DNA of 64,000 nucleotides from Promethearchaeota archaeon (GTDB lineage: Archaea; Asgardarchaeota; Lokiarchaeia; Sigyniarchaeales; SOKP01), in contig JAHPZE010000022.1 in NCBI GenBank assembly GCA_019058365.1, forward strand, positions 1 to 64,000, given 5' to 3'. The translations under genes and the position numbers were made by a program. The notes under the pieces are model-generated. The model ran no database searches and was not told where the DNA came from. It was given only the letters and a program-made list of their open reading frames with translations. Shown here piece after piece: positions 6,701 to 46,046 of this stretch; within the stretch, counting starts at the first letter, position 1; each line of letters opens with the position of its first letter.

Positions 6701-9700
6701 TTTCTAATAATGAATTGTTTTATGAATCTAATTTTTGGTTTGTGAAAGATTTCAATAATCATTTAGAATTTGTGGTTGAAGGGTTATACAATAATTTTCT
6801 CTATGGGCTTGATCAAGATGATATGGTAGATTTAGAATTACAAATTTTACCTTTCGATAACGATATTTCCAAAGTAGTTATAAGTACAAGCTATGAGACA
6901 TTTACCCTTACAACAATATTTAATGAGTACGATTATATATATTTTGAAGATGTTGGTGCTGAAGAGATAAAGTTAAATGCAACATTTTATAATATCATAG
7001 GGACAGAATTTTCCTACATTCCGATTGAGGTAAAATTGTATCAAGAAACCACTTTGATAACATCAAAGCAGATAATAATTACGGTTACTGATACCATATT
7101 TACAGACCCCGTTCAGATCTCAAATATTGAAGTTGAGACGGGGTATCTATATCCAGCGACCTATAATTTTCAAGAAGATGAAGTAGGTACGAATGGAACA
7201 TCTATAGGATTTGTAAATTCCACAAGTTCTTTAGGTTTAGCAGAGATTACTTCAGCGAAAAATGGTCATAAAAATGTCCTCCATACTCAAGGAGATACTT
7301 CTATTATTGTTTATCATCTATTTGGTTCAGCAAAATATTCTGGAATAATTGAGTTCTGGTTATATTCAAACCTTCCGACTATAGGATGGGATGTTCAATT
7401 TAAGCTTTACAGTGATATAGATGATATCGGTTATTTATTTATTGATCACAACACCGGAATGCTCCGATGGTATGACTTTTCAACATCTATAGATATTTCT
7501 TTGGGAGATATAACAAGACAGTGGAACCATATAAAAATTGAATGGGACGGAAATTCTGTTATAATATATTTGAATGGTGAAAGCGGAGTAAGTGTCAATT
7601 TTGAAAGTGGAAAAAATTCTCCTACAAAGATTGCATTATGTAATTTTGATAGTTTTGAAGCATGGTGGGATGCTTTTGGTTTTAGTTGGGACTCTGAATA
7701 TTATATTGGAACTAATGTCTATCATACAAACCTTCTTGATATTTCAAGTGGATTTGAAAATGAAGATTGGGGTACTTCTGGAACAACTGTAGGATTTATA
7801 GATAATTTAGGGACTGCTGCTAATTGCGATTCAGAAATTGTTCCTGAATTTAATGATCATAAAAAGGTCTGGCGTTTGTATGATAATAATGGAGCAGGTC
7901 AAATATGGACATGTAATTATATAGGTTCGAAAACAAGTGGTACTATTGAATATTGGATGAAAAGTTCAGATGCTGCTAACTTAGCTCTTACTCAATTAGC
8001 AAATACAGGTTGGACAAAATATGCAATTCAAGTTGGAATCGATACTGACGCATTTGTTTATCATAGTAGGATATCAGGCTGGCAGAATATTCCAAATGCC
8101 CCAACACCTCAAGATGATACATGGTATCATATTAAAATTCAGTTTGATTGTAGTACTTATAAATTTCGTATATGGGTTGATAATATTTATTCTGGAGAAC
8201 TTGATTTTTCCAATACTGCGGACGATGCATATTTCTTTGTAATGAGAACAGAGACCGCAGATAGTGGATATTATGCATATTGGGATGCTGTAGGTTATTC
8301 CTGGGATGAAGATTATTGTCTTGGAAGCAATTTAAGAGTAGAACCAGCTAATATATTCATTAGCTTTGAAAATAATCTATATGCCTACAATAATTCTCAT
8401 AGTATACCATTTATTGTAAATAACCACCCTCCAGTTATTAAACTCTATGATTCAAATAATTATCTTTTAGGTATTGCCCAACTACGACCAAATTGTGATA
8501 CATACGGAATGGAATTATATAATACTGAAACAATTGAGATTCTTGATAATCATTTTATTGTATCGCTTCCCATTCCTGGAATCGGAGAAGTTTGCTCTAT
8601 TGAAAAAGTATGGGTGATTGGAACGCAATACGATTTTTCATATTTAATAAATAGTGACGGAGATCTGTTCATCCAACTTATTACTCCAAATAAATTAGAT
8701 GGTATATATGGGGCAGCCTATCCAATAGAAGTGGAGTATGGTATTTCAACGTCATTTAAATCCACAAATCAGTTTGCTGGTAACTTTGATTTTGCCTCAT
8801 TACCACAAGATACCTACACTATCATTTTTGAGTTTTATGACATCTCTGGAGTTACTTCTACATTTGAATTAAATGAGAGTATTTTTATTGATTTTGAAGG
8901 GCCTTATATCTACAATCAATTTCCAGGATCTTCTACTTCCATAAATCCTGATTCTGATTCCATCTCATTCATTATAAATGATATGTCCCCTATTGTAGAT
9001 TATTACTTTAATAATTCCATTAATGGATTTTGGCAAGTAATCGGAGATACTTACACCTTTTATTTCAATGATACTTCAATATCAGAGGGACTAAATTCAA
9101 TTCTCTTTAATTGTGAAGATTCTCTTGGATATACATCTACAAGTTATTTTACTTTACTTATTGATAGAACCGCTCCTGACATCACCTTACTCTCAAAGAA
9201 CTTTGATGAAATCATTACTAAATTATGTTCCTTTGATGTTCTCATTGATGATAACTCCAATTATGACATATCCTTGAAGGTTGTAGATTCCAATACTAGT
9301 GTTGTGTTTAATAATTTAGAATTCATTACGATAGAGAATCCTTCAGATACATGGCAAATTCTTTTTGATACAGGACAACTCCCAGATGGTTATTATGACA
9401 TTTACATATGTGTTACCGATTCTGTAGGGAATTATGCTGAATTACTTATTGATCCCTATTTTGATAACACTCCACCCATAATTGATACACTCATAGAACA
9501 AATCTCTGTGGATGATCAAAATATCTATAATAATACTATTACTGATTCTCTCTATTTCAATGACGAAGAATATCTCTATTTATCCGCTTCTGATATTACT
9601 TCAGATGGTTTTGATTGGGGTAGCATTAGCCCGCTATTAGGAGACCAAAGAGGTGTTCAAAATGTTACAATGTATTATACTATCCCATTAGAATGGTATC

Positions 9701-12700
9701 CCCTCTCAATCTCAGGGAGTTTGGATTATGAGACACTAATTTATGAAATTACGGGTTATGGAGATCCATTGAAGGGCGATCTGACCAAAATCAAGTCCAT
9801 TCAGAACTTGAAAATAGGAGGATATACTGTTGATAAATTCAATATTATTTTGGATGGTACTTCTTTATTGCTCTCTATTGATCCTCAATATCGATACTTA
9901 TTATCCTCAGCTTTTACAGACCAGATTTACGCTCAGTTCTTTGAAGCGGTTGCTGATCCAATTAACTTATCATATAATAGTAATACTCAAAATTGGGAAT
10001 TAATATCTTTAGAAAGAAATTACTTTAACATTTCAGATTATTTGTCTCTTACTGAGGGAAACCAATTTCTTCTTTGGTTCGAATTAAAAGATGGGTTAGA
10101 AAACGAGTTAATTTCTCGTAAATATAATGGCTTTTATGATAATTATATAGGACAAGATCCTCAAGGAGCAGAATCATTTTCATGGTATTTGGGGGCTAAT
10201 TCGAGTGGAGCAGGAATTATTATTTTTGGCTCGGATAATTATCCTGATTCCACGATTCAATTCAATATCTCTTCCATAGAGCTAACTGCTTTAGGAGAAC
10301 AAGATATCCATCGCATAATGATTTATGGTTCAGTTGATTCACAAAATTGGATCTATATTGGAAGAGCGTATTATTCTGGTGAGGAAAATTTATGGAATTA
10401 CTTCTGGGACGGGGATCGATTGGATCCAGTACCACCTCAAAATTATAACCTTAAAGGTCTTTTATTTGATATAGCGGGAAATTATCTTACCCAAACTCAT
10501 TCAATTAAGATTTATGATTATACCCAGATTAATTTGATTACAGATTTAGTGTTTGGGTCGGTATTTGAATTCAATTATACCGCCTATTCAAATATTCAAA
10601 ATATCGGAGGTATGATTGAAAATTATTTTGGCTCCAATAATATATGGGATGTAATTGCTCAGTTTTATTCACCATCGGAACACACATGGATCCCACTTTT
10701 TACAAATCCAACCACAATTCATACCAACGGTTCATATGAAATAACATGGGACATTTCCCAAGATCACGGTTTTCTAGATAATATGTACAACTTTTCTTAT
10801 GGTTATTTGCCATTACAAGTCGCTTCTGCTACATCTTCTGATTTGTGGGGATCATGGGGCACTTTTGGAGATACAATCTGGAAGCCCATAATTATTTCAG
10901 ATGCAAATGGTAATATCAATATTACTATATACCTATTTAATAATGAGACAGGATGGACCGTTGATAGCTCTTTAAGTTCTGAAATAACGATTCCTAACCT
11001 TAGCAATCAGGTATTTAAATTATTTGATATCAATAAAGATAACTCTTATGAAATTCTTAGAGTCTCTCCTGCTCAAATTGACGTGTTGTTCCTCAATCAG
11101 ACCACTTCTCAATGGGAAGTACAATTAGATGTTACACACCTTTCAGGCTATGAATACCAAGCATTTGATATCTCATACGATAGAAGTTCCTCAGATACGT
11201 TTTTATTCGTTACTCAAAAAGAGACCAGTTCAAATCATTTATCCCTCTGGAAATATCAATTTACTAATCAGTATAGCCTTACCCTCATAAAATCTGTGGA
11301 ATGCCCCGAAAATTTCGAACCTTATGCTATAAAATACAGTAATTATTTCTCTGGTTCTGACCGAAAAGCTCTAATTGTAGGGGGCTTGATTACAGACTCA
11401 TACTATTCACAACTCATCGAATTTGATTCGAATCTGAACGTGAAAAATATCATTATTGATGCCATTCTGGGAAAGATATCTCTCATTGAATATGATGATA
11501 TCGGAGGGCTTGATACGATTGTACTAGGAGTGAAGAGAGTGCTCATAGGGAAAATGGATGCGGTTATCACTCTACATAGGACATCCGGAACAGAAGAGTG
11601 GGTTGAATTTGAATTATCTAATTTCGATGAAGTTAGGTTTGAAATTTTTGATCTTTTAACAATTTCTGAAGATTGTATGAAAAAATTAATTATCTCATCT
11701 AATACAGGGCTTTTTGAGACGAAAATTACCTCATTTAAAGATGAATTATCAATAACCAGTCCTATATGTTTTTATTCTGAAACATTTACTATAGGAGAGT
11801 TAGCCCCCAGTTATTATCCTGAAATTATACCAGAAAAGACTCCTTTAAGTGCCGTCAATAAAATTACCTATAAACTCTCAAGCAGTAGTGAATGGAAGGT
11901 ATTAAGTCTTAATAAATATCTAGCTTCTCCATATAAGGTAAAGATGGATTTAACTTCTATATGGACTAATTTAGAATATGTGAAAATCGCATACTCGTTC
12001 AAATCATTTGTCGCAACGGTTCGAACTTCCGTTGATCCTTCATTTAACAATAAAACAGGAGCCTCAGATACGCAATACATATCAGCTTCGGGCACCTTTT
12101 TCGATAACCTCCCCTTAAACTTCCAATGGTTAAACCCGGCAACAAGATATATCGACCCTTATGCCAACTGGATTACTTTACCAAGCTCACTTTCCTATCA
12201 GTATCAACCGGTAATTTCTGGATTAGGAAATACCGTATTTTATCCCGAAGTGTATTATGGAGCGGATAATGGATATCTCCTTGCTCCCGAATTAGAGAAT
12301 TATTTAATAGATTATGGAGATTCGTATGATTCAGGACAGCTATCGCAATATCTAAGCGGACAAGACGATTATTATACTAATATGTTTGACGGTAATTTCG
12401 AAGGGAATTATATAGATTATGTAGCTATGTCCAATCCTTACATTTCAGACAATTACAACTTTGCTGATATGTATTATCCTGAAATTCAAGGCTCCGAAGG
12501 GGTTTATAATTCTTATGGTGATGGTCAATACGTCCTTGTGCGTAATAACCTTATAGACCTTGAACCATATAACTCTAGTGTCAGTATCATATATGATTCT
12601 GGAACTCTTCCTGTGGAACTCACAGCTCATTATTTACGAGAGTTAAAAGATGATGAGCCAGACTCTGATTATACTTATGGAACAGAAGGTGTTGAAGATG

Positions 12701-27700: not shown

Positions 27701-30700
27701 TTCAGGATTCTCAAGGAAACGATATTCCCATTGATATAGTTCCTATTAGTTCACTGGGACTATTTGAATATGAAGAAACATTAAAAATTGGAAGCTCCCT
27801 CTCGATACCTCTTGGCGGAGGAACTCGACTCGTTCACCTAGCACTAAGTTACCTTCCTACCTCATTATATAATAAATCAGCCGATCAATTAATAGATATT
27901 ACGGGTAAATATGAAGGAGAAAATGGCAATAAAATATATCCATATGTGGAGAGTAATAAATGGACAAAACCATTTACAGTTGTTACTGTCCCCGATAAAG
28001 CAAAACTTATCATGGTTGATGATATTACTCAGGATGCAGTTATTCAGCAAGAATTTGATGGAGAACGAGATTATATTTTCAATTATAATCCGATGGAAGC
28101 GTTAGAAGAAGGCGAAGAATATACTAAAGTAATGATTGATGTACTTACCAAAGAAAATTATACTTTCACCTTCCAGCATCTTAGTTATGAAGATGAGCTC
28201 GGTTCCCAAAAACCGATAAACAACAGTATAGTATGGCTCCACGTAGGTCTTATGCCTAAATCTGAGACCAAGTTCATAAATGATCGCACAATTATTGAAG
28301 AATATGGGATGCCCATGTATTTTGAATCATTGGGAACTCATCCTATAACTTTTGCAGGTCCAGGAACAAGTTCATTAGGGGCAAATAAAATGTTTGGAAG
28401 AGCCCTTATTTATGAATCGGGTAATCAATATTCAAATTATAGTGCCTATGGTCCGTTTATTTGGACATACGGAATAACTGATGAGTCGGGATGTGTCTCG
28501 TTTGAAGTAAATCTTGATCATGATTTTATCTCTGATTTCCTTGAAATTTGGGGCTCTATGGAAGGGTTCAATTCAGTGGAAGATATCGTATTATATATAA
28601 GAGCTTTCACCATAAGCGATTTCATATGGGATGACATGGCAATCGACTCTCCCGATCAATACCTCTGTTCAAAAGACGGGACGGTATTTGATGGAACCTC
28701 AAATATTGAAAATTATGACTTCACTCCATCAAAACTTCGAGATAACACCTATGTTGAAGGTCTTATACGCTTCCATAAGAATTATATAGCGGTAGGCTCA
28801 AATGATCACTACACATATAATTTGCCAGATCCAGATGACCCAATCGTTAACAAATTCGAAGATCTTACAGTGCATATTTATGCCACCAGAGCGAATCCTT
28901 TCCCTGACGGAACGATTCACACACTTGAATCCATCACCAAAGACTATTCAAATACAGAATTAGAGCCAACCGATGAATCAATTTTTGAAGATAACTATCG
29001 ATATTATGCCAATATTGAATTTATTAATCCTTCAGGCAATGTTGTAGAAACTCTCTATAAAGAAATTCACGAGGCGGATAATAGCGGGTACTTCACCATC
29101 GATAATGAAACAATGGCAGATATTGTTTTCAATTTAGGACCCGGTATTTCTAGCTTGAGAATTACTGTTGATGAAACAGAATATTATCGTGAATCGGCAC
29201 CCGTAATGGTACCCATCGAGATTTTGCCACCCTATTATACCACATTCGGTAAGAAAAACGTTGAGATTGATTTAATCGATCCGTTTATTAATGCCTATGG
29301 AAATGCGTTTGACCCCGATTATATGCCTTTTGAAAGTAATTATCCTCATTTGATTGGAACGTTATGGGTAGAACCATTCTTTAACGCCACTGGTGCAGAA
29401 AAATCAATTCAAGATTATGTGGAAATTAATTTAATATGTACTATTATCGGAGATGAAGGAGAGCAAGATCCATTCCCCTTACGTGAAGGAATTATGCTTC
29501 GCCCCGGCAACCATGATGGTCTTATGAAGTTCGATATCGGTTTGGGTCCTGAAGACGCATGGCTACTTGGTGATCATTGCAAGCTCAACTTATCATTCGA
29601 TATTTCTTATAATGCATATAAAATCTATGAAGATGATCGGGATGTTATTATCTACCTTCTCGATTTGCGTTTGGAAGAGAATCCTTCCAGCAGCACCCCT
29701 GCAACAAATTGGTCATTATATTATGATACTTTAGATTTTGATCAGGAATTAATCACAATTTCAGAAAAGCCTGATACGATAGATGATACGAAAACAGGAG
29801 CCGTTTCATTAGGAGGTGTGGTAAATGAAGAAACATATGGTATCGAGGTTGAATTTACTTATGATCCTGAAACTTCCCTCTATTCCATTGATAATTCGAG
29901 TGAATTATATTACTTATTAGATCTCTATTCTATTGAACCCCTTGAAATTCGAAATGAATCAGGCGAATTAGTAGCCGATTGGGAGCAAGCATATCAAAGC
30001 TCTCCTCATAAGAAGGAGCAAGCAATAGTTCGACTGGGAGAAAATGCAAATATTCAGGATTCTACATCTTTTACCGTAATTTATCGATTTTACTTCGATT
30101 TTGATGGATATTATGCTCAAATTACTTTGGGTCCAAATGAAGGAAATCATATTAATATGAGTTGGATTGAGATTGAGTTAGCTGACGGCTTTTTGCCTGA
30201 AAGTGAGGATAGCACATCCTTTATGTTTACCAGATTCAACCAAACTTGTGTTGGTGATGATGAAACTACTGAATTTTATTTAGATTATACTAAAGAGGAT
30301 GCCGAAAAATCTGATTTTATAATATATAATTATAAAGAATTGGATGCATTAGATACAGAGCAGAATGACGATTCAGTTAGTCTATCTATTGAAGGTAATT
30401 GTTTAGAAATTTCATTTGATGAGCCTATAGGTTCCGATGTGAAATTTGCTGTAGAGTACGGCGTAAAATCTCAATATTTATTAGGATATGGATTCCAAAA
30501 GTTTAATGAAACCTATAGTGATTCTGTACGATTGTTATCTAAAGATTCTAATGAAGACATGATTAAGGAGAGTGGAGAAACTCTCGAAGCGTATAACGTT
30601 GAAGATCCTTCCTTGTATATTGGTTTAGATAATTCCCTTGACGAGACCATTTTAGAGCTGTATAATATGCCCCTGCTTTATGGCCCAGAAATTAACTGCA

Positions 30701-33700
30701 CCTTTATTTTAGATTCCATAGTAGTTGATTGGATTAAAAGCTTTAAAGCACAAGATAATAATACCTTAACTATTGACTTTTATTTTGTAGCAGGTGGCGG
30801 GTACGGTTCTTATTATATGGATTCGGTTGACCTTTCTCTTGATTGGTATACCATAAAAGATGATTTAGTGTCAGGGTCATATATACTTCAATACAGTAAA
30901 GATCTTCAAGGTATTTATGATACGTATGGAGCAAGCTCACTTGATATTTATATCAGTATTTCTCAACAAGGTACTAGCGCTAACTTTATTCCCTACATCA
31001 TTCTTGAACAATTTGATTACCTCTGTGATGATCATTATGTGGAAATGTATGCTCGAATGCCGGTAAACGAAGATGAAATCCTTGATGTTGATGCAGTTAT
31101 CAACACCCCTCATTATTATCAGATTTTATCCCGACCATTCTTAGATTGCGCCTATGGAGAATCTGATTTTGATTTAATTGACGGTTCAGAAGTTACAGTT
31201 GGAATTGATGGGTTAATGTATTCAAGCTTAGTCGCATTAGATGGAACACGAGGAGATTATAACTTCACTTATTTAGGTACCCAAGAAACTCTTCCAGTGA
31301 ATTCAGAAAATTATTATATGATTCCTAATCTAGCACTTTTTACTGATGCATATAATACTGATGAGGTCATCTATCAAGACGGTTTTGTAAACCTTTATTA
31401 TGGAAGTGGTACTGATGTTCGAGGAGAATATGATTACAATAAAAGGATTTACATGGATTATTCTGGTGCTGGAGTGGATGATTATGAGTCGTATCTTAAC
31501 AATGGAGCCCCGACATCATGGGAAGCCACCTTTAATATAACCGATCAATTTTTAACCACTCAGGAAATTTCAGTCTCAGGTACAGTTCTATACCATCAAT
31601 TATTCGATTTAGGCTCCGATATTATAGATAATAGTGAATTAATTGAGATTTTACCTGATATTGAAGGGATGTTTTTCGGAATTGAACTTCCTACTGATGT
31701 AAGCATCGCGCATATTAGAACCATCGGAACTCCATACGAGTACGATTTAAGCGCTCAAGGATTTCCAATAGATCCCAATGATTATGACCAAGGTACTTAC
31801 TGTAAATTTGATGATGGTAAATCTTACACCATGAATTTTGATACGCGGGCAGAACATAGTATTATGAACTCTACCATATTTTATTCGCTTGAATTTGCGT
31901 CTAACGGCAGCAAGTATATCGTGTTTTACAAAAATTATACCACCGTACAATCCTATGCAATAGATAACTTTATTATGGTAGATTACTGGGCATATTATAC
32001 TTTTACTCAAGGGTTTGATTATAATATTGTGGAAGATCCTATCGATCCTTTTGTGTCTACGATTGTGTGGGAATTTACCGTAGATTCTATCGATTCATAT
32101 TCAATACATCCTGACTTTGCTTTCAATAGTTCCTCTTTTACCATTGATTATTCTTCGTTAGAATGGAATTTAGCAGATAATCGAAATGGGTATATCAAGG
32201 ATGGAAATGATCAGTTTACATTCCAACCTGAGATTACCACCAATATTTCGGTAGTGTACTATGGAGATGATAATGAATCATTTTCACTATTAAATATCGT
32301 TCCTGATAACCAATTCAACGACTCCCAGATATTCAAAGAAGTATATGTACAATTCTGGGATGGAGAAGACTTATCATCAGTAGATATATTCCGCATACCA
32401 GATGACATTATTATACATGACTACATATATCAAGATGTAAGCACCAGTTTCTATTATTGGATAAATTTCACTAAATGTGAGCAACGCGTACAAGATTTCT
32501 ATCCAAATTATACACTTGTACCCGATTCATATGCATTTGTTGAAATTCAATTTATTTCAGATCAATTAAAATATCCATTGACTCATACTCCATTTAATTA
32601 TGAAATGGTGCAAAGTCAACACACAACATATCATATTACGCTAAATATCGAAGGAAAAGATCCGATCTATAGTTATGAATCAGAATTTGAAAAATATGTG
32701 CTAAAAATCGAAAATAATTATATCTATTTCAACGATAAACTATACGGAGAAGAGGGTTATATCTCCAATAAAACGCAAATCTCTCTTTCCTATAAGTTTA
32801 AACTTCAGCCAGGTCTTTTAGACCAAGAACATTTCTTTATGGTGATATACCCTTGGACTAACGTATTTGATACCACAATAGATATAGATGACCCCGACTA
32901 TTATCGTGAAAAATACAGAAAACTTTCAGGAGGGTCAATTATTTCACCATTTGAATATTCTCTTTCCATTAATGATACTTATTCGCTCTATTTAAGCTAC
33001 CGTTTGAACTTAAGAGAATCTTATGACGTGAAATGTGAGATCGACTATGCTTCTGGAGAGTTGGACTTTTCCTACTTGCAAAATGGGCTTGATACTTATA
33101 TTAAAGAGTATGTGAATGATGAGGAAGCTGCAGTACGGGTGTATTATTTCGATACTGATGGAACCAAGAGACCCTTACAACAATGGCATTATACCGTAGA
33201 TCCCGTAGAGCATAAAGTAATTTTAAAAGATAATGGAAATATTATAACCACTCCAAATGAAATTTCAGAATTTTATATTACTATTATTCCTGAATCCCGT
33301 GATTATACTCTTGCTACGTATGAATATACTTATAATCCTTCCTTGAATATGTCAGATACACTTGCATTAACTCATTGGGAAGTCACCAATGGAGAACAAT
33401 TTGACGTGATCCCCAATTTCAATGCTCTGTATTATGTAAATGAACAAGAAAGCACGTTTACTCGTAGTTTATGCTATGCAACTCAAATATCCTCTTTCTT
33501 AGAGATTGGCGAAGAATTAGTATTTAATATAATCGATGAATTGCCAGAGGATGTAGTTGCTGATATTGCTTCGGGAGACTATGGCAGCCTATTCATTAAT
33601 ACAATTATGGATAATTATGAAGCGTTAGACACGCTCGTTGTTGAATTACATAGCTCATCAGCAAAGATAGGTGAACAAATATTCTCAAGAGAAGAATTAC

Positions 33701-36700
33701 TTGCGTGTGATTTCAAGCTCCAGATTGATCTTGCTGGTGCGAACGCCTTACACCATTTAATATTCAAGCCCGAATTCAGAACTGATAACGAGTATAGCGA
33801 TGATAATGTCGTCGGTATACCTTATTTTGAATTTATAGAGTGGGATGAGGCGCTTACCACCACTGATGAGGATGGAAATCTTGTAATGATGCATATTCTT
33901 GAAAAAGATCTTTTCACCAAAGATAGTCCTCTAGAAATTGCTTATATGTTTAATGATAAACTACAATGGCTAAAATTACCCGAAGATATAGCATTCAATT
34001 GGGAAATTGAAGTAGATGCTTTCAAGAGAAATATCTCTTATCTGTTGCTTCCGAGTGCGTATATAAATCCCGATGATAGTTCTGAAGTAACTTCCTTTGA
34101 AGATGGCGACTTGATTATTCTACGATATAATACACCTGTAGATAAAGCCATCCAAATTGGAGTTGAAAAAATGTATTTGAATAAGAAGCCCGCTAATCCA
34201 TCCCTTCCTTTTGCCGAAGTTATGCTTATAAACACGAATAATTCCATTGATTACAGCACATTTTCAGATCCTTACAGTTATACTTTACCCTTAAATCTTA
34301 CGCCATTCAATACGGAATATTTAGGCACTTACATGGATATTTTAGTTGATATTAACTTAACAACTCTGGAAGAATTTGCAGAAAACGGGTATCTTGACTT
34401 CTCTCATTTAGTGGTTTCTGTTCCAGACCCCGCCTATGAACTCACCTTACATGAAATTGCGATAGTACAAGAATATCAAGACGGCTTAGAGTATTCTGAA
34501 GAATTTTATAGTAGAATATGGCAATTTACAGAACGAGACAACTTTACCTCGACCGATGATCCTGAACATGACCAATATCACTTTACCTACAACAAAACTC
34601 CCCTCTACTATAACGATCCAGACAATGGTAAATGGCTCGAATATCTAAAGATCTATGATGAGAATTACAATTATTATTCCGCAGGTCTTTCCGGTGATGA
34701 GTATCAACTTTTATGGGATCCCGATTCTGGAAACTTCACATGGAATAAAGGTTTTGGTGTGTTCCAAGATTACTGGGGTATGCAAATTGAGCTTCCCGCG
34801 ATGATAGAACCTAATACCACCCTTTATTTCGAATATTGCTATAATGAGTCTTGGAATTCGCCAATTGTGATGCAATATGAAAATATTCTTTTTGAATCCA
34901 TTGATTTGGTCTATAATTGGGATTATTTGCTTACGCCCCGATATGAAATGTGGTATGGAGAAATTTATGATAATACCAATAACGGTTATGATTATGAAGT
35001 AGAACAGTATTATTCCGAAGCATTTTCGGTATATGATGATTCTTCAATCTATTCATATACATTTGAAGCAGATTACAACTTTACTACCGATTTCCTTAAT
35101 ATGTCTTTGTTTAAAGTTATCGGAGTCTATGCCAACTTTACGGAAACCGAGCTTGTAGATGATAATACTAACTATGATATTGATTTTGATATTGACAACA
35201 AAGAAATAACTATTTCGGACCTTATTTCTGGTGATGGCCTTCTCAATCAATTTGATCTGATTACTGTTATTGTAAACTTCACTTCAGGTCCAATTTCCCA
35301 GAGAACCGTTATAACCTTTTCAAATACTTTTAATGAAACCTATCTTTCTGATATTGAATCATCGTTTTATGATTATATTAGCTGCTCTTTTGATTATTCA
35401 GTCAATCAACCATCCTTTCTATTTGCAGAATCCGCTTATCACATAATTTCCGATTCTACCTCATTTATTCCGATTAATTATTCCAAAAATACGGATTTAA
35501 GCTTTGATTTCGGGATTGAAGATTATGATACAAATACCATCTATGAAAAATTTGAAATTCACGAAGACAAATATAATACGATCTATGTAGCTGATTTAGA
35601 TTTTGATGGTGAAGTGGACTATAAACAGGAAATTGATATAGATAAGAATGATAGAATAGACATCACACGCTACGGGATCGATGATCCCGAAAATCCGGGA
35701 GAAATTATTTGGTATCGTATAATACAAGATTTTGAGACTGAAGAAAAAATAATTAATAAACAGCAAGATGAAGAATTAAGAACTAATTGGTTCAAAATAG
35801 CAGATCTTGGAGTCTGGGCACAGCGTTCTGTACAAGAACAATCAAGTACCGTTCAGTTTACAGACACTAAATTCTACAGTGTAAAATTAGATGTTGATCT
35901 CGATGGCTATGCTGATAGCCAGATGACCTATCACCGAGTTACAGATACAGTTATTCATGAAAATATAGTAAATGAATGGACGGCGATAGTTAGTGCTGAA
36001 GCAGATGAATATATGACTATATATATAACTGCAGAAATAATTAACCATCTAACGATAGAATTAATTGAATCATTTGATTATGAAGTATTAAAACAATATT
36101 TAGATTATTCCCAATTTTTAGTTCTAAAAGGCTCCTATACCAAATTTAGAGAAACTTCTATTCTTTCTCACACAGAACAGACCATTCAAGAAGTACTTAC
36201 ATATATAGATTGGGAAGAAGGAGAAGTCACGAGTACTCGATCCTATGTAAATATGTTTTCAGAAGGACTTTCAGAGCTCTCATATAGAAACTTAAAGTCA
36301 GATGTATTTAGCACATTGTCAGTATATAATGAAGACACAGACCAAACACAAGAAATTAGCGGACTTCCTTTTTTCATCGCAAATTTCTCCCAGATCGATT
36401 GGCATACCGAAGTATGGGGTCCTGATGCTGTACCAATACAATTTGATACTCTTTATAGTAGCTATGGTGAAGATGAGAATACAGTTAAAAACTATTATGA
36501 AGGTACCTATTGTATAAACTTTCGCAATCGTTTTAGTCTTTATCACGACTATCAAAAAGATCTTTCTGATGATGTTATAGGCTCAACATTATTTAATGTG
36601 GAAGGTATTTTCATAACTCCCGTAGATGGGAAAGTGTATTTTACATCAACGAAAGCTGCATATCAATCTTCTGACCGTACAATGGCTAAAACTTACGGAC

Positions 36701-39700
36701 ATTATCTTTATTATGACAGCGACAAAAATGGCTTCTACGAAACCGTTTATGTATTAGCTCCTGATGAAGATGAGGATGGAGTATATGATGTTATTTCAAT
36801 TATCTATAATTATGACGGAGACCATGCAATTACGCCATATGAGATAATTAGCACCGAAGAATCATTTACTGGTAATTATATTTCCCGAAAAGTTCTTGGA
36901 ATAGATTTTCACGGTATAATAATTAATGAATTTGGAGGGTCAGTTAATAATCTTAAGGATTGGTTAGATGAGTGGTACGGAGAAATCCATGATGGGTTTA
37001 TTACCAAAGATAATGTGTTTGAGATTTATAAGCTTTTGCCGATAGAAAACGTTAATGAGTTCGCTCCTGCGTTATTTTACGAGGCATATTTAGGAGCTTA
37101 TGGTGATGCATGGAATATGTATCAAGACCAGCTTTGGGATGACGTATGGGAACAAGTTGGAATGATGGCCACTGCGGGATATATATCAGGAGGGGCCTCT
37201 ATAGCGTTAATAGCACTTGGGGCTTCAAATCCAGTGACTGCTCTCATCGGAGGTCTTATTTTCGCCGTTATATACTGCAGTTTAACATTGAGTTCTCAAG
37301 ATGCAAAGCGTCGAGAGCAGCAGAATAAAGTTTCCGCGCAAACCTATTATTCACTTGATTCGGACAATAATCAGCCAACTAATATAAACCAGAAACAATT
37401 GAACGGAGGCACTTGGGAGCATTATTCCGAGCATCCCAGTCCGAAATATATGCCCATATCTACAGGTGAAATAAACCCTCAATATGACGCAAAAGCAATT
37501 GTAACACCACCTGACAGCCTCAGAATCACTGGACGCATGGGCGATTCCAATTTTACGTTCTTCGGTATTGAAGAAAAAGAACTAAACTGGTGGGATAAGT
37601 TTTGGATGAATGTATTTGAGGCTTTAGCTGGAGGTGGCGACGCAATGGCACCAGGTTCTGGTATTAATTTCCCTGAATTTACTGATGCGGAGGAGGAAAA
37701 CATTAGAGATATGCTAAGAGCTGCTTCACATGCCTATACAAATCTGGACTACTTACTTATAACAAGCGAATTGCCATCATATAATATCATTGAATATTAT
37801 GAGTTCGATCATGGAACGGAAGATTATCGCACTATTGCATATGATAATTATAAAAGTAATACGTTAGGATTTTTAGAGCAAACCATGATTCCCGCTTCAA
37901 ATGGAAAGTATAATGCAATAAGACCGATGTGTATTAATGGTCGCCCCGCATACATGTATATTAACAGCAATGATGAGTTCAATCAGCGTATCCAACCACT
38001 TTCACCGTTATATCAACCCGTTGTCATTAGTAATGAGCGATATGGAGTGCTTTTTCCAGACGATACCATCCCAGACTCTACGATTTCAGTTGATATCCAA
38101 AGCGGATTGTTAAACGATTCCTATACTTCAGGTATTGACTCTAATAATCTTACAATTTATGAATATAAGCGAGGGTATAAAGCAAAAATTCCACTCTATA
38201 GCGATGAATTTAACTATCCAATTAGTTTGATCACGGTTGAAGTTATTACTTCAGGTGTAAGTTCAGGTCTATTATCCAGTACTTATTTTGCCACCTATGT
38301 TTCGGAAATCGAGCTTACGTCCAGTCAATATACTCTCGAAGGAGGTAATTTATACTTTTGCGAAACTTTTGATGAGATTATTCTTTCAGCTTTTAATTTT
38401 AAAGTATTGCAAGACGAGTTTCTAGAATTAACTCAGAATTGGGAGGAAGGGACCCTCTTTTATAAAGTTCATATCCACATTCCGCAAGTGATTGCAGATA
38501 CATCTACGACCGCAGGAGTTATCGATACGATATCCAGTGATGCTGGCAGAAGTGCGTTAGCTCAGACCACTCAGTATTTAATTAGTGATTTCTTTAACGT
38601 ATTCACCTTAGCAAAATCATTTGCCGAAGGTGAAGCACAAAAAGATTATACCGTACAAGTTACAGCAATTTCCACCCTGATATCTTCTTTAGCCCTTCTG
38701 CCCGTTGTTTTCGCCTCCGCTGGAGTATCGGGTTTTATTAAAGGTGCGGTTGGCAGGACTATAGGAACAACTGTAGCAAAATATGTTGCGTCGTTGCCAG
38801 TTCAGGTACTACAAGAAGTATATGAAGAGCTTTATATTGACTCATTTATAGAAGAAACATTACAGCATTTGGGCGACTCTACCGGTATCTGGGGCGTTAT
38901 TGTCACTTCATTACGGGAAGCTATACTCGGGCCAGCAGCCGAATTCCTAGGAAGCCTCAGAGGATCTTCAAACGTAGATGTAAATACCCAGATGACCGCT
39001 CAAGAAGTTCAATTACAACAAACAAGTAATATCTTACAATCATTTTTATGGACTGGTCATCATGTTATGCAAGAGGCAACATTAGATAATGCCATCTCTT
39101 CGGACGTATCAACTGAAGCTCAATTATTAAGTAATAATATAAATAAGATTCAAGCCCAACTTGCAGAACTGGGACTTACTCGACAGAAGAATAAAATAAA
39201 GGCAAAATCTATATTCGGCACGGAATTCATAATTCAAGGAATCTTCTCCCTTCCTGGACTCTTCTTTGGCGGGTTCAATTTAGGCGCGATGGGAACGCTT
39301 CTTGACCTGTCAATCGATTATATGTTTGATGTCCAATTATCTCGCCACATGATCGACAATAAAATCCAAGCGGTAACTCAAACGAAGCACAGATTAGACC
39401 TTGAAGCAAAGTATTTAGGATTAGTACGCGATGCACAAACCGTTTCTAATATCCCTCAAGTCAAGTTCGTACTTGCCATGGCACAAGGGATTGCCACCAT
39501 CAACCCAAGCCAATACAGCGCCTCCGAATTCCAAACTCAAGTACAACTGCAAATAAATCAACTCGATGCATTCGGCACAATTATAAGGTCTGTGAAAGAG
39601 AAACAGCAAAAAATCAAAGAAAGGCAGAATCAATTGGAGGTTCTAGGTAGTTCTAAAGAAAATGTCGAGAGTATAGAGCAGAAATTTCAGAATAATCCTA

Positions 39701-42700
39701 ATCCGATACAGCTACATCTCAATCTCGAATTTCTGCCTGGAATGATTGCGTTTGAGCCTCACAGGCAAGCTCTTCGCGTCTGGAGTGAGGAAAATCCAGA
39801 AGGCATCAACCTTAACCCCCCTTCCGATTTAACACTTCCCGAATTTGAGCTCTACATAAAGAATAAATTAGGATTAGATCGAAGCCAAGAAGTTTTTCTT
39901 GCGTTAACCCTAGTTGATGAGAGTACCAATGAGATAATCCAAATCAGAGTTGATGAGAAGATTGGTGATTTAGAGATTGACGATCAAACCACCATTGGTG
40001 AGATTTCCAATGCTATGAATGGATATAATTTATATATAATGCCTCTGACTGCGGGCGCTTGGGGTGGTATTAATTATGATCCAAATTATATTGTACCTAT
40101 TTATGATTGGTTGTTTGAACCCCCTTCTGTAAAGATTATAAGAGAAAAGATGGGAACACTATTTGATTCTGAAATTATATCCAAATATTTTAGTGATCCT
40201 GTATTACAAGAGCAACTTATAAACATATATTACCAAGTTATCACCCCTACAGCTAGAGCTTATTTGGATAAGATTTCTACAGGAACAGTAGGATCCGTTT
40301 TTGGAGCCAATTCTATATTTAGTGGGAAAAATTCGTTTGAATGGATTTCCAGAACTGCAGAATTTTATTATTTGTTACAGTTAGAAAATTCTCCTCAATA
40401 TAAAAATATGAATCTAAAACTAAAGAATGCAAAAATTAAAGAATTCAAAGCATATATCAGTGAAATAATCGAATTTGTATTGAAGCCTCGATTCGAGAAC
40501 ACATTTGATGATGCTAATAAAGGCTTAGATTTTATTAAATCTTTATTAGAAGAGAGTGCCCGATATGCAATTATGGAAATGATTTTGTTACAAATTACAG
40601 ATGGAGGTAAAACTAAATTAGAAGGATCTGAGTTAGCTTCCAAATTAGAAAACTTTTTAGCTAGTTATGACAAGAATAAGTTCATTAAAGAGTTTAATAA
40701 AAAAGGTACTAAATTTGTGCAACTCCGTTTCATGGAGAGCATGCTTACAGGTGAGTGGGATACACAGATGCGCTTTGATTACACTCCATATGAAATTGGC
40801 TGGTACCGTGAGACTTTTTCATTTATGTTCCTTATTAGTGATTCTCTTATTAAATTGTTTTTTGATGATGAGTTTGACTTAATGGCGGGGTATGATAGTA
40901 GTGCAGATAAGCATACAAGAATTCAATTTTATCAGACAATTTCGTATAATCCAAAATATGTTCACAAAGATTTTAAAGATTTTATTGATACCGATCTTGA
41001 AGCCGTTTATAAAAAGTTAAATAATGGGTTAGCTGAAACTTTTGGAAATTTAAAGAAGCAGAATTTCAGAATCACTGACCTCTTCCAGATGTATATTAAG
41101 GGACTAGCATATATCAATTATGCCATCAAGAATTCTAGGACCTCTGATAACGAACTAATGCTTAATAATATCGCAATGGATACTTTAAGCACTATTTTTG
41201 GTGCGTTCTTTAAAAAAATATCTGATAAAGGTACAGCAGCTGAGATTGAGAAACAAATAGAAGTATTAGTAGTTGCTAGTAAGGTTGGAGAGATTGCTCC
41301 TATTGGTAAGATTATTAATACTATAGTAGAGACGCATAAATTAAGTCAGCTCCATCAAGCGGGAAAAGAAGATGGTTTTTGGGTAGAGGGTGAAGGAACA
41401 GGTAAAGGTCCTGACCAAATGGAATTCTATATTACTATAGCAGATAAAATAAATGAGAAGTTAAAATCAGAGTCTATTGATAGATCCGATATTAATAAAG
41501 TTGTAAAGAAAATTCAATCTTATTTAAAAGATGTGGATTTCAAAGATGAAATTAAAGATATAGCTAAAGATATTTTAGGAGCAGCCTATAAAGATATGGC
41601 GGTCAGTGAGATTTATAATATTGTTAATAAAGAGTTCATAGGGGGTAATCTGAAGAGAATACTTAAACAAGATGATCAGGGTAACTATCAACTTGAGTGG
41701 GATATAACAATAAATGTATATAAACGTACTGATATTGATATTGACGAGGCAAAATTAGCGAATTCAGGACTTTTCTTTGTTATAAAAGATAGAAGTGGAA
41801 AATTAGCTAAGATGACTTATTCCCAAGTTAAGCAAATGTATCCTAAATTTGATTTTAAACAAGCATGGATAGCCGTAAAGGATAGGAATAGTGGCAATGG
41901 ATTAATGTCAGCAACAGAGAAGATCAATGATTTACCAGATTCATTGGAGAATGATATTTCAGATAAGTTTGGGGATATTGAAGGAGTCTATATAACAGAC
42001 CATAGTGGAAAACTCTTACTCGGAAGGATATTTCTTGACAAAGATTTCTATGAATTTGCTGTTATGGAGGATGCAGAGATTTCTCAGCTCTTAAGAGAAA
42101 GTATAGAGCATATTAAGAATTATGATTTCCCCGGCGCTGATAGGATCAATGAATTTTTCCATCTTACATATTTACGTTCGATTTCTTGGAAGACGGGAGG
42201 GAGAATTAGCTCAATTATTCAAGATGTTGATTCAGCAATCATCCCTACAGGACCTCATAAATCAATTTTTTCCATAGAGAGAGCAGCAGTTATTCTAGGG
42301 AAAGAACATGTGATACTCAATCCAGACCGAAATAAAATTACTGAATTGAAAGGGGAATTATCTGCATTATTGAATGTTATTAATCAACTAGGTGGACTGT
42401 ATACTTCCCACGAATTATATAAAGAGAGTGAAATAACTCCTAAGATATTTCCAACTAAAGATTTTGCCAATTTACATTCAAAAGAGAAGATATTTGGAAT
42501 TAATGAATTTAGAACAATGTTAGAAAAAGTGGTGCCAAAGCAAGGAGGGTGGCTGCACAATAAAGATCCTTCCAACCCGTTACTTTCAGATTATTGGTAT
42601 GAACATCTTGCACGATTTTCTGAATATTCTTATAATAATAAGCTAACAAAGGAACAATTTTATAAGAATTGGCTTTTAATAATTCAGAATGATTTAGAGA

Positions 42701-44423: not shown

Positions 44424-46046
44424 TTATCCATATTTACTTGTGTGAACCGTCCATTTGCCAAACTTTGTTTTTAGCCACTCAATTTCGGATTCACTAATTT
44501 CTGTTCCTTCTATATAAAGGCTTTGTAGAGATTTAAGGTTAATAGTTGTTGGCGGTAAACTTCGTATAGGATTATCACTAATGGAAATTATTTCCAGCTT
44601 ATCTAATTCTCCAATACAAGGAGGTAATTCTGAAATATTATTATTTCGAATTCTTAAATCTTTCAATGTTTTTAGTTTACATATTGATTCAGGCAATCTT
44701 TCTATTTGATTTTCTCCACATTCGAGATTTACTAGTGAAGTCAATTTACCAATAGAAGAAGGAAGTGTTGATATTTTATTACTGTCTACATCAAGCCATG
44801 TAAGAGTTTTAAGATCTCCTATTGATATAGGTATTTCTTCTAGAAGGTTTTTACTTAGAGTGAGAGTTTGTATCGATTTAAGGTTCCCAATAGAATCCGG
44901 AAGTTGCTTTATCTGATTATTATAAAGGTCTGCATATCTGAGAGAATTTAAATTCCCAAAAGATTTTGGAAGAGTCATTAATTTATTATCGCGTAAATCT
45001 AGTCTCTTTAAAGAAAGAAGATTTCCGAATGATTCTGGTAAAGTTTCAAGTTCATTATCAAATAAATTTAAGTTTTCTAATCTTTTCAAATTCCCAAATG
45101 ATTCAGGTAATTTTATTAGTTTATTGTTGCTAAGATTTAACTTTTTTAGAGAAGTCAATTTTCCAAACGATTCAGGAAGCATCCTTAATTGATTCGAAGA
45201 AATTCTTAATTCTTCTAATGATTTAAGATTTCCAAATGATTCAGGTAATTTTTCCAAATTTACAAATATCCTAAGTTTTTTTACAGATTTCAATTCCCCA
45301 ATCCAATCGGGAAGACTTTTCAATTGGTCGCTTGAAATACGTAATATAACTAAGTTTTTCAAGTTTTTTATTATTTCAGGTAATTCTTCTATATAACACC
45401 TTGCAAGATTAAGTTCCTTCACTATTCCTTCTTCCAATAGAAAGCTCTGATCATAGCGAGAGTCTTTCGAATCTAAATAGAATTCTTTTTCTGTTAATCT
45501 TTCTAGTTCCTTTATAGCGTTCTCTTCTTCTACTAATTTGAACAGGCTATATTTTTCTTCTCCTGTTATCAACTTCATATATTTTTCTTGGAGCAAGAAT
45601 TTTTGGACGTTCTTCGTCCCGTTAAAGAATCGAGAAATTATTTCTTCTTTAAATCTTTGTTTTGCTTTTAAATCTCCGACTTCAGTCAGTCTTTTTAATA
45701 AGGGGAATGAAAGGTTGCTGTGAAGGAGTCGGGTATCATAATTATGTTCTGCCCATGCTTGAATATTTGAGCAATGAACCAAGAATCTCACATGAGGTGG
45801 AATATCTATTACTTCCACTTCAAAATTATCCTCATACATATGGTAAGGAGCATTAGCCACTTCATCTACAGACAATTCTGTTAATTCATCAATAGAATCA
45901 ATTTGTTGAAGCTCTTTTAATCTGTCAGCTTGTCTATTTAGTAAAATGATTGAGCAATGTTCGAACAATTCTCCATTTACATAAAGATTTGTCTTCTCAT
46001 CTTCAAGTTTCAAAGTAATAAATTCATTTATTTTATATTCAACCAT
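44424..46046 (-). CDS. Leucine-rich repeat protein with Lokiarchaeia-type N-terminal domain
   Basis: About 13-14 repeats of 23 aa (LxxLxLxxNxLxxLPESFGNLxx). The N-domain Y/FKINEFITLKLE...HCSNIQAWAEHNYDTRLLHSNLSFPLLKRL is one I recognise from expanded Loki LRR families. No signal peptide or TM segment. Confidence 0.93.
   Translation of the reverse strand: MVEYKINEFITLKLEDEKTNLYVNGELFEHCSIILLNRQADRLKELQQIDSIDELTELSVDEVANAPYHMYEDNFEVEVIDIPPHVRFLVHCSNIQAWAEHNYDTRLLHSNLSFPLLKRLTEVGDLKAKQRFKEEIISRFFNGTKNVQKFLLQEKYMKLITGEEKYSLFKLVEEENAIKELERLTEKEFYLDSKDSRYDQSFLLEEGIVKELNLARCYIEELPEIIKNLKNLVILRISSDQLKSLPDWIGELKSVKKLRIFVNLEKLPESFGNLKSLEELRISSNQLRMLPESFGKLTSLKKLNLSNNKLIKLPESFGNLKRLENLNLFDNELETLPESFGNLLSLKRLDLRDNKLMTLPKSFGNLNSLRYADLYNNQIKQLPDSIGNLKSIQTLTLSKNLLEEIPISIGDLKTLTWLDVDSNKISTLPSSIGKLTSLVNLECGENQIERLPESICKLKTLKDLRIRNNNISELPPCIGELDKLEIISISDNPIRSLPPTTINLKSLQSLYIEGTEISESEIEWLKTKFGKWTVHTSKYG
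44490..45422 (-). repeat. 69-bp-period LRR array
   Basis: Recurrent LPES codons (e.g. TGATTCAGGTAATTTT on the + strand near 45099 and 45237). Confidence 0.85.

Follow-up and report, generated by a model that had tools for sequence, protein, structure and literature searches.

Polymorphic, contact-dependent delivery systems have as their hallmarks a constant region, a variable C-terminal part and orphan cassettes with partner genes (Zhang et al. 2012, PMC3482391). Here we compare with these systems the C-terminal end of a giant protein encoded on a stretch of 64,000 nucleotides (nt) from a Promethearchaeota archaeon of the Lokiarchaeia (GCA_019058365.1, contig JAHPZE010000022.1, positions 1 to 64,000 of the forward strand), and this whole stretch is called the window in the following. 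A single open frame of 14,548 amino acids (aa), without internal stop, encloses the region in question, nt 37156-39700, which corresponds to aa ~12133-12980 near the C-terminal end of the protein. Judging from sequences and predicted structures, we consider the chances about even that this region serves a family of giant Lokiarchaeial surface proteins as their constant C-terminal membrane-insertion (delivery) module. An earlier note on this DNA had seen in it a translocation or pore module rather than ordinary anchors; of this claim the distinct segments, the hairpins and the position ahead of the tail stand, and a loss of glycosylation sequons and Cys argues for exposure on the outside, whereas pore formation and translocation are what we infer.

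Like the CdiA/Rhs-type polymorphic toxins, the giant protein has a huge surface filament, a conserved region ahead of the cargo and a sharp junction to a variable end, and its family likewise includes at least one orphan C-terminal cassette with a partner gene and a deaminase-like end in two members. In CdiA, a dedicated region reportedly enters the envelope of the target cell ahead of the toxin. There are also clear differences. The giant protein has no sequence relationship to CdiA or Rhs, resides in an archaeal single membrane without two-partner or type VI secretion and is anchored by about twelve N-terminal membrane helices, and its constant module is made of helical hairpins. The partners belong to one leucine-rich-repeat (LRR) family instead of being unrelated small immunity genes, a ubiquitin-like stretch (Ubl) precedes the cargo, and the avoidance of sequons described below is without bacterial counterpart.

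The giant protein starts with a charged part (aa 1-200), followed at aa ~207-565 by about twelve strongly hydrophobic, I/L/F-rich membrane helices, the last of which runs in-to-out according to the basic loops of this bundle. The ectodomain of ~11,570 aa is acidic, rich in Asn, Ser, Thr and Tyr, poor in Lys and free of hydrophobic segments. At the C-terminal end the hydrophobic module, the Ubl and a Lys-rich tail follow each other. The hydrophobic or amphipathic segments of the module are numbered H1 to H6, and its parts are arranged as follows.

760..44406, plus strand: whole giant open reading frame (ORF), with N-terminal cytoplasmic part, ~12 membrane helices, ectodomain, C-terminal module, Ubl and tail
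37120..37290, plus strand: first helical hairpin, an amphipathic lead-in into H1 (aa 12121-12156), an 'NP' turn and H2
aa 12134-12156, plus strand: H1, GMMATAGYISGGASIALIALGAS
aa 12159-12177, plus strand: H2
37291..37641, plus strand: linker after H2 (aa 12178-12294), with a basic KRREQQNK, a beta-hairpin and a Trp-rich amphipathic helix
37729..38526, plus strand: globular alpha/beta domain (aa ~12324-12589), beginning at the conserved NLDY(F/L)L motif
38536..38742, plus strand: pre-H3 helix of 53 residues, ALAQTTQYLISDFFNVF..., running into H3 and a Gly/Ala-rich turn
aa 12632-12661, plus strand: H3, with its core at aa 12634-12652 (nt 38659-38715)
38749..38871, plus strand: return helix of the H3 hairpin, a moderately hydrophobic H3b followed by an invariant acidic stripe
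38878..38958 (aa 12707-12733), plus strand: H4, amphipathic and bearing an invariant FW..(L)xTSxRE motif (T12716, S12717, R12719, E12720)
39124..39210, plus strand: amphipathic Gln-rich helix LLSNNINKIQAQLAELG, then the basic cluster TRQKNKIKAKS
39208..39327 (aa 12817-12856), plus strand: H5, a 40-residue Gly-rich hydrophobic stretch, ..IFSLPGLFFGGFNLGAMG..
39457..39564, plus strand: H6 (aa 12900-12915) together with the conserved INPSQYSASEF..QVQL block
39589..39729, plus strand: Gln/Lys-rich helix VKEKQQKIKERQNQLEVL and NNPNPIQLHL motif, the constant-to-variable junction

That the hydrophobic segments of the module differ from the I/L/F-rich helices at the N-terminus had been noticed before, and the composition agrees with this. 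Gly and Ala together account for 25.8% of the residues in the module segments versus 7.4% in the twelve N-terminal membrane helices, and I/L/F/V/M for 43.9% versus 60.5%. Hydrophobicity was calculated by summing a biological scale (Hessa 2005) over 19 residues, and the resulting numbers are approximate: in the window protein H2 scores -0.8, H3 +1.5, H1 +2.5 and H5 +5.4, and the N-terminal helices of the same protein range from -2.6 to +2. The family medians are +3.3 for H3 and +3.25 for H5, compared with +0.75 for 112 N-terminal helices from 12 full-length homologues. Because the segments of the family are even more marginal than those of the window protein, the contrast between module and anchor helices is a family trait; richness in Gly and Ala likewise extends across the family. 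The interleaving with amphipathic, Gln-rich helices was also found as described, since both helices quoted at the time, LSNNINKIQAQLAELG (aa 12790-12805) and VKEKQQKIKERQNQLEVL (aa 12945-12962), are present and have hydrophobic moments of 0.41 and 0.53, respectively, against 0.05-0.10 for H1 and H2. The Gln content reaches 8.5-14% in the module region versus 2-4% in the ectodomain.

Two structure predictions suggest how these segments are arranged. The first AlphaFold2 model (aa 12120-12990, alignment of 57 sequences) has a mean predicted local distance difference test (pLDDT) score of 69. In it H1 and H2 are predicted as a long hairpin made of helices 2-33 and 38-75 (pLDDT ~80), which is followed by a globular domain of ~270 aa predicted with pLDDT above 90 between this hairpin and H3, and then by long helices; H5 and its surroundings are poorly modelled (pLDDT <50). 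The confidently folded globular domain of 270 aa between H2 and H3 had been left out of the earlier note. The second model (aa 12589-12999, 52 sequences) predicts a 53-residue helix ending in H3, a Gly/Ala-rich loop and a return helix of 41 residues which carries the acidic stripe, all with pLDDT values of 84-95. In this model H3 thus does not cross as a lone helix but caps a long antiparallel hairpin as its hydrophobic tip, so that the description of the segments as hairpins holds for H1/H2 as well as for H3.

Several of these elements are recognizable throughout the family. The first hairpin is conserved as D(I/V)xEQVxM..TA..S ... YxxxYxLxTKF, the beta-hairpin of the linker as GHPGGYY..SPPN, and the pre-H3 helix as ALAQAT.Y.I.DYFNQYT.A, which runs into H3 (T.WSTLIS...). 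The acidic stripe of the return helix is invariant and consists of E12686, E12689, E12690, D12694 and E12698 (E..EE...D...E). After another 90-170 residues comes H5, marked by the motif (I/L)PS(F/L)FFGGxG. In one homologue (L023, genome G169, contig C21) the Trp-rich amphipathic helix of the linker is replaced by a Gly/Ala-rich hydrophobic stretch, AAGIIAFLGANIGASMVSLFPIVIGTLANWIASIVGG, at residues ~1285-1325 of the frame; a hydrophobic insert at this place suggests a location at or in the membrane for this portion of the linker.

When 1.84 billion representatives were searched exhaustively with phmmer, aa 12120-13090 serving as the query, 108 homologues of the module were obtained at E<=1e-3, and 35 of these lay below 1e-30. 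The module core is present in 43 of 400 genomes of the phylum, 40 of which are among the 134 genomes of the window's own family, with up to five copies per genome and a single one in the genome of the window. Open frames bearing the module mostly comprise 11,000-14,800 codons. The longest of them (G206:C13, around 141282-142460) reaches 20,619 codons compared with 14,548 in the window.

The alignment of close relatives reveals where the constant part ends. To each of its two closest relatives, in the genomes G224 and G177, the window protein is 60-90% identical up to aa ~12950 and only 12-26% identical over the remaining 1,600 residues, and an independent close pair (G213 and G193) drops from 80-95% to about 20% identity. 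In this second pair the break lies 220-260 residues past the acidic stripe at an INxNPK..NKFN motif, and the window protein has NNPNPIQLHL at aa 12979. A sharp constant-to-variable junction, as expected of a polymorphic toxin system, is therefore seen in two independent close pairs. On sequence comparison the module is a conserved unit and the last constant part ahead of a variable tail; it is kept across homologues with different C-termini. The earlier note had placed it directly upstream of the Ubl and the payload. This is right insofar as the module is the last conserved block before the variable tail, but the junction itself falls within the latter of the two quoted helices (aa ~12950), some 50 residues ahead of the Ubl. 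The break thus lies at nt ~39,607-39,729 (aa ~12950-12990) and not at nt ~40,070 after the Ubl, and for this reason the Ubl-like domain belongs to the variable part. In the relatives in G224 and G177 the Ubl-like stretch has diverged and lacks the GAWGG ending.

Among the tails several families with mosaic sharing can be distinguished. The tails are almost without Pfam matches, and neither the window's own tail nor the other scanned homologues match a toxin family, with the following exception: PF14424 (Toxin-deaminase) matches two of 33 homologues, the best with E 6e-6 and 26.8 bits, which is below the curated cut-off of 29.6. The matching ends of these two proteins, P0024 (residues 1183-1402) and P0075 (residues 927-1095), are homologous C-terminal domains (E 6e-7). 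Since their modules are only about 19% identical, a homologous end on such divergent modules suggests a shuffled C-terminal toxin domain. A third protein, P0057, shows an H-S-E...C-S-F-C pattern by eye; it has no Pfam match and reaches only E 0.32 against P0024, and was not counted as a second deaminase. In the same alignment (A2) two of the 33 family members match PF14528 (LAGLIDADG_3), possibly an intein or homing-endonuclease domain, and one matches Peptidase_S24.

The strongest signal comes from the distribution of N-glycosylation sequons (N-x-S/T). The window protein has 155 of them in all, and its ectodomain carries them at or above the rate expected by chance. The last three are located at aa 12264, 12452 and 12463. 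From aa 12653 to 14548 there is none, where 12.7±3.2 are expected, and not one of 2000 shuffles reached zero. The same holds for the family: the part after H3 contains two sequons in 48 homologues against 392 expected, and from the pre-H3 helix to the C-terminus 83 sequences (82,125 residues) contain seven against 603 expected. Of these seven, three fall within the final seven residues of the chain and another three at the margin of the globular domain. Mapped on the parts of the module, the distribution is as follows.

Linker after H2, homologues: 0 sequons observed, 30.5 expected
Globular domain, homologues: 61 sequons observed, 132 expected
Pre-H3 helix to TSxRE, homologues: 0 sequons observed, 51 expected
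38542..44406 (aa 12595-14548), plus strand: sequon-free zone of the family map, which starts at the beginning of the pre-H3 helix and is also poor in Cys

The globular domain carries sequons at about half the chance rate and is therefore read as lying outside the cell.

The depletion is restricted to the functional motif. In the same 83 sequences the reversed motif S/T-x-N occurs 527 times against 603 expected, and the ratios of observed to expected numbers are 0.86 for D-x-S/T, 1.09 for Q-x-S/T and 0.89 for K-x-S/T. The rare alternative sequon N-x-C is absent (0 against 10.5 expected), and N-P-S/T has been kept 44 times. According to PMC8342417, the archaeal AglB excludes Pro at the middle position, and N-P-S/T is unusable for the oligosaccharyltransferase. 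Composition as the cause of the sequon loss is ruled out by the shuffles, the reversed motif and the other motif controls.

The loss is also not found elsewhere in these proteins or in the genome (4.74 Mb, 54 contigs), which does encode an STT3/AglB gene. The N-terminal cytoplasmic parts of 12 full-length homologues contain 28 sequons against 30.4 expected, the twelve neighbouring genes 42 against 36.7, and all ORFs of at least 250 aa in the genome 7002 against 6653, among which no other comparably depleted stretch was found. A cytoplasmic location alone therefore does not remove sequons, because neither the cytoplasmic N-termini nor the remainder of the genome has lost them. Cys is depleted in parallel: it makes up 0% of the helical module and 0.21-0.24% of the tails versus 1.17% genome-wide. 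The exclusion of Cys is typical of exported prokaryotic proteins. As side observations, sequons are enriched in two other parts of the window protein, namely the presumably cytoplasmic N-terminal part (760-1359, aa 1-200; five against 1.2 expected) and the last quarter of the ectodomain (27757-35559, aa 9000-11600), where 44 were found against 23.7 expected, a number reached by none of 2000 shuffles.

The avoidance of sequons is thus family-wide and motif-specific, is absent from the cytoplasmic N-termini of the same proteins and begins inside the module. The simplest reading of the sequences is that the oligosaccharyltransferase meets the chain from aa ~12595 on in a state accessible to it, and that glycans in this part would be strongly deleterious. 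Very probably the region is thus exposed to this enzyme and glycosylation is selected against from aa ~12595 onwards, which suits a delivery module exported together with its cargo better than a plain anchor whose tail remains cytoplasmic. Such an ordinary C-terminal anchor, in which H3 or H5 would be a constitutive single-pass helix, the ectodomain a loop held at both ends, and the cytoplasmic tail would signal or bind the LRR partner, is in our opinion unlikely. A cytoplasmic tail never meets the oligosaccharyltransferase, so that a motif-specific loss (seven against 603) with retained N-P-S/T would have no cause, and neither the cytoplasmic N-termini nor the rest of the genome experienced such a loss. 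The five-fold depletion of Cys does not fit this explanation either, nor do tails which are swapped at a sharp junction, two of them ending in a toxin-type deaminase-like domain.

Part of what does speak for an anchor is found in the flanks of the hydrophobic segments. The charges given here are averages over about 80 homologues.

H3 flanks: N-side 0.8 K+R and 2.2 D+E, C-side 1.5 K+R and 0.9 D+E; implies out-to-in
H5 flanks: N-side 2.7 K+R and 1.1 D+E, C-side 1.15 K+R and 1.5 D+E; implies in-to-out

H3 is thus acidic on its N-side and basic on its C-side, and H5 in the main subfamily is a clean hydrophobic stretch of 19-21 residues followed by a very basic segment. A Lys-rich tail would suit an anchored protein with a cytoplasmic end as well, and a Ubl and an LRR neighbour without a signal are at home in the cytoplasm. 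On the other hand, H3 modelled as the tip of a hairpin would make no net crossing, and the flank charges of H5 indicate the in-to-out direction. Counting the crossings, the tail comes to lie outside, because their number is even both for an H1/H2 hairpin with single H3 and H5 helices and for hairpins throughout; only under mixed crossing assumptions does it lie in the cytoplasm. A topology with 'single-span H1/H2' and a cytoplasmic linker was rejected for this protein, as it has no return helix ahead of the globular domain; the homologue in G169, however, has its long hydrophobic insert exactly there. A confident topology with the C-terminus in the producer's own cytoplasm, which the earlier note regarded as favouring a receptor, did not emerge from an out-to-in H3, an in-to-out H5 and an H3 modelled as a hairpin, even though this evidence is soft.

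An even number of crossings, or hairpins, would equally place the tail outside if nothing were translocated at all and re-entrant hairpin anchors simply held an extracellular enzyme or binding domain that does not tolerate glycans. The avoidance of sequons and Cys would fit such an exported protein. However, the ectodomain keeps its sequons at or above the chance rate, the zero tolerance across dozens of unrelated tail families would be left unexplained, and a composition rich in Lys, a Ubl and deaminase-like ends suggest that the action takes place inside a cell, all of which makes this explanation very unlikely to us.

For the delivery module we envisage the following mechanism. The chain from aa ~12595 to its end would reach the outer face of the membrane, where the marginal hairpins would not act as firm stop-transfer anchors and would at most dip reversibly into the producer's membrane. 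Being outside, the chain would be within reach of the oligosaccharyltransferase, and every N-x-S/T would have been eliminated, since the next step would be blocked by a glycan. Once the 11,500-aa ectodomain contacts a neighbouring cell, the hairpins (H1/H2, the H3 tip and H5) would insert into the membrane of this neighbour, and the unglycosylated, Cys-poor cargo would be threaded across it, released at the Ubl and become active, possibly as a toxin, in the neighbour's cytoplasm. The adjacent LRR protein would be a likely protective partner neutralising the cargo in kin. Before delivery the tail may rest on the outside or else, as in CdiA, be arrested in the cytoplasm. Only tentatively do we propose, on this basis, that Lokiarchaeia carry a self-contained cell-to-cell delivery device, not described before, in which the hairpin module at the end of a giant tethered surface protein inserts into the membrane of a neighbour and passes a glycan-free, ubiquitin-like-tagged and exchangeable cargo into this cell.

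Several points weigh against a delivery module. The flanks of H3 obey the positive-inside rule for an out-to-in anchor, and three features, namely a Lys content of the tail like that of cytoplasmic proteins, the Ubl and an LRR neighbour devoid of a signal, fit equally well to a tail kept in the producer's cytoplasm. Sequons are missing from the H3-H5 loop and from the linker behind H2 as well, which a simple rule of bare cargo only does not explain. No homology or significant fold similarity to a known pore-forming or translocation domain was found with Pfam, PDB, Foldseek or VIA-align. The toxin signal is weak, as it comes from two of ~42 scanned homologues, lies below the curated cut-off and leaves the other tails without any Pfam match. 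The representatives used for the counts are at most 50% identical and their tails come from different families, but the homologues share ancestry, and pooled counts therefore overstate their independence. Finally, the hydrophobicity scale is approximate and the topology was judged from flank charges and fold models.

If the proposed function is true, the module would be the first candidate machine in these archaea for placing a protein in another cell, and the delivery device would be built from parts without known relatives and coupled to a ubiquitin-like tag. Complete avoidance of sequons would then be a general signature of proteins which, in organisms that glycosylate, must pass through a second membrane once they have been exported. 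The signature provides a parameter-free sequence test for parts of membrane proteins which are exposed to the glycosylation machinery and yet kept bare, any proteome of archaea or eukaryotes can be screened for it, and it makes the question of anchor or delivery domain directly testable by experiment.

The module resembles the insertion domains of known toxins (colicin, diphtheria T, the large clostridial delivery domains, IpaB/YopB) in several respects. Like them it has marginal, small-residue-rich hairpins flanked by amphipathic helices, with conserved acidic residues beside the hairpin, and lies directly upstream of the cargo. Unlike them it is much larger (~850 aa), includes a globular domain that can be glycosylated and is part of a membrane-anchored protein of 14.5 kaa (thousand aa). 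The earlier note had likened the helices to those of colicins, RTX proteins and type III translocators, a resemblance which turned out to be one of character only, as neither sequence nor fold comparisons gave a match. Pfam reports no family at E<=0.1 in the last 3,468 aa (aa 11081-14548). PDB sequence searches with the single sequence and with a profile gave nothing significant, and the profile search gave nothing below E 0.1. The colicin profile PF01024 accordingly has no match in aa 11081-14548 at this Pfam threshold, and no colicin came up below E 0.1 in the PDB profile search. RTX nonapeptide repeats (PF00353) have no Pfam match and none are visible in aa 12101-13100. Type III translocators of the IpaB/SipB/YopB class have no Pfam match, and AopB appeared only at E 2.8 in the PDB profile search, which is noise. 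A word-indexed homologue search for longer proteins led to one match, which carries no Pfam information.

The comparison of folds gave a similar picture. Foldseek found nothing at E<=1e-3, neither in PDB with both models nor in BFVD with the first model, and VIA-align with both models returned generic helical hairpins only (Z<=8). The proposed check against pore-forming and translocation domains therefore pointed to no known family. The absence of a match to colicin, the diphtheria T-domain, the ClyA family, type III translocators or fusion proteins in these fold searches carries little weight, given the low scores that helical models obtain and the poor model of H5. The H3 hairpin aligned best with c-subunits of ATP synthase (model residues 33-108, Z 7.0-7.8, 73-75 residues aligned, root-mean-square deviation 4.3-5.0), a likeness at noise level for helical proteins in which only the shape of two antiparallel helices with a tight turn is common.

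By analogy with class I viral fusion proteins, one could also imagine a fusogen-like module, in which the Gly/Ala-rich segments would be fusion peptides and the long Gln-rich helices a coiled coil that folds back and merges two membranes, either of two cells or of a vesicle and a cell. H5 (..IFSLPGLFFGGFNLGAMG..) and H1 do resemble fusion peptides in composition, long helices flank these segments, and a tight refolding would need membrane-proximal helices free of glycans. We give this idea a slight chance at best, given that the searches of PDB and BFVD gave no structural match to fusion proteins, that neither a trimer nor a cleavage site is indicated, and that the swappable, sequon-free tail of 1,500 aa and the partner gene would have no explanation.

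The hallmark of orphan cassettes was found for the giant-protein family as well. In the locus L014 (G265:C185) an ORF of 1,255 aa (13719-17486) starts at the globular domain (NLDY motif, query position 205) and lies 4.9 kb past the stop of a main gene of 12,291 aa, with four small co-directional ORFs in between. This cassette has its own LRR gene (17557-18396). A second frame beginning at the same start of the globular domain, with 2,283 aa, is present in G177:C2.

In the window the giant gene is followed by the partner gene.

44424..46046, minus strand: leucine-rich-repeat (LRR) partner gene, signal-less, adjoining the giant gene

An LRR homologue is the first downstream gene in ten of 16 loci, in either orientation (L013, L014, L017, L019, L020, L022, L023, L025, L027 and L028). 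The LRR partners share an N-terminal domain with the pattern EFWAHCSN.Q.WAE.NYDTRL and are 35-49% identical to each other, and the matching tails are 20-32% identical or unrelated. Loci without an adjacent LRR gene have instead a small homologous ORF as the first downstream gene (L016, 7717-8274; L018, 8511-8957; L026, 8577-8918 and 8965-9306), which shows a zinc-ribbon-like CxxCG...CxxCY pattern.

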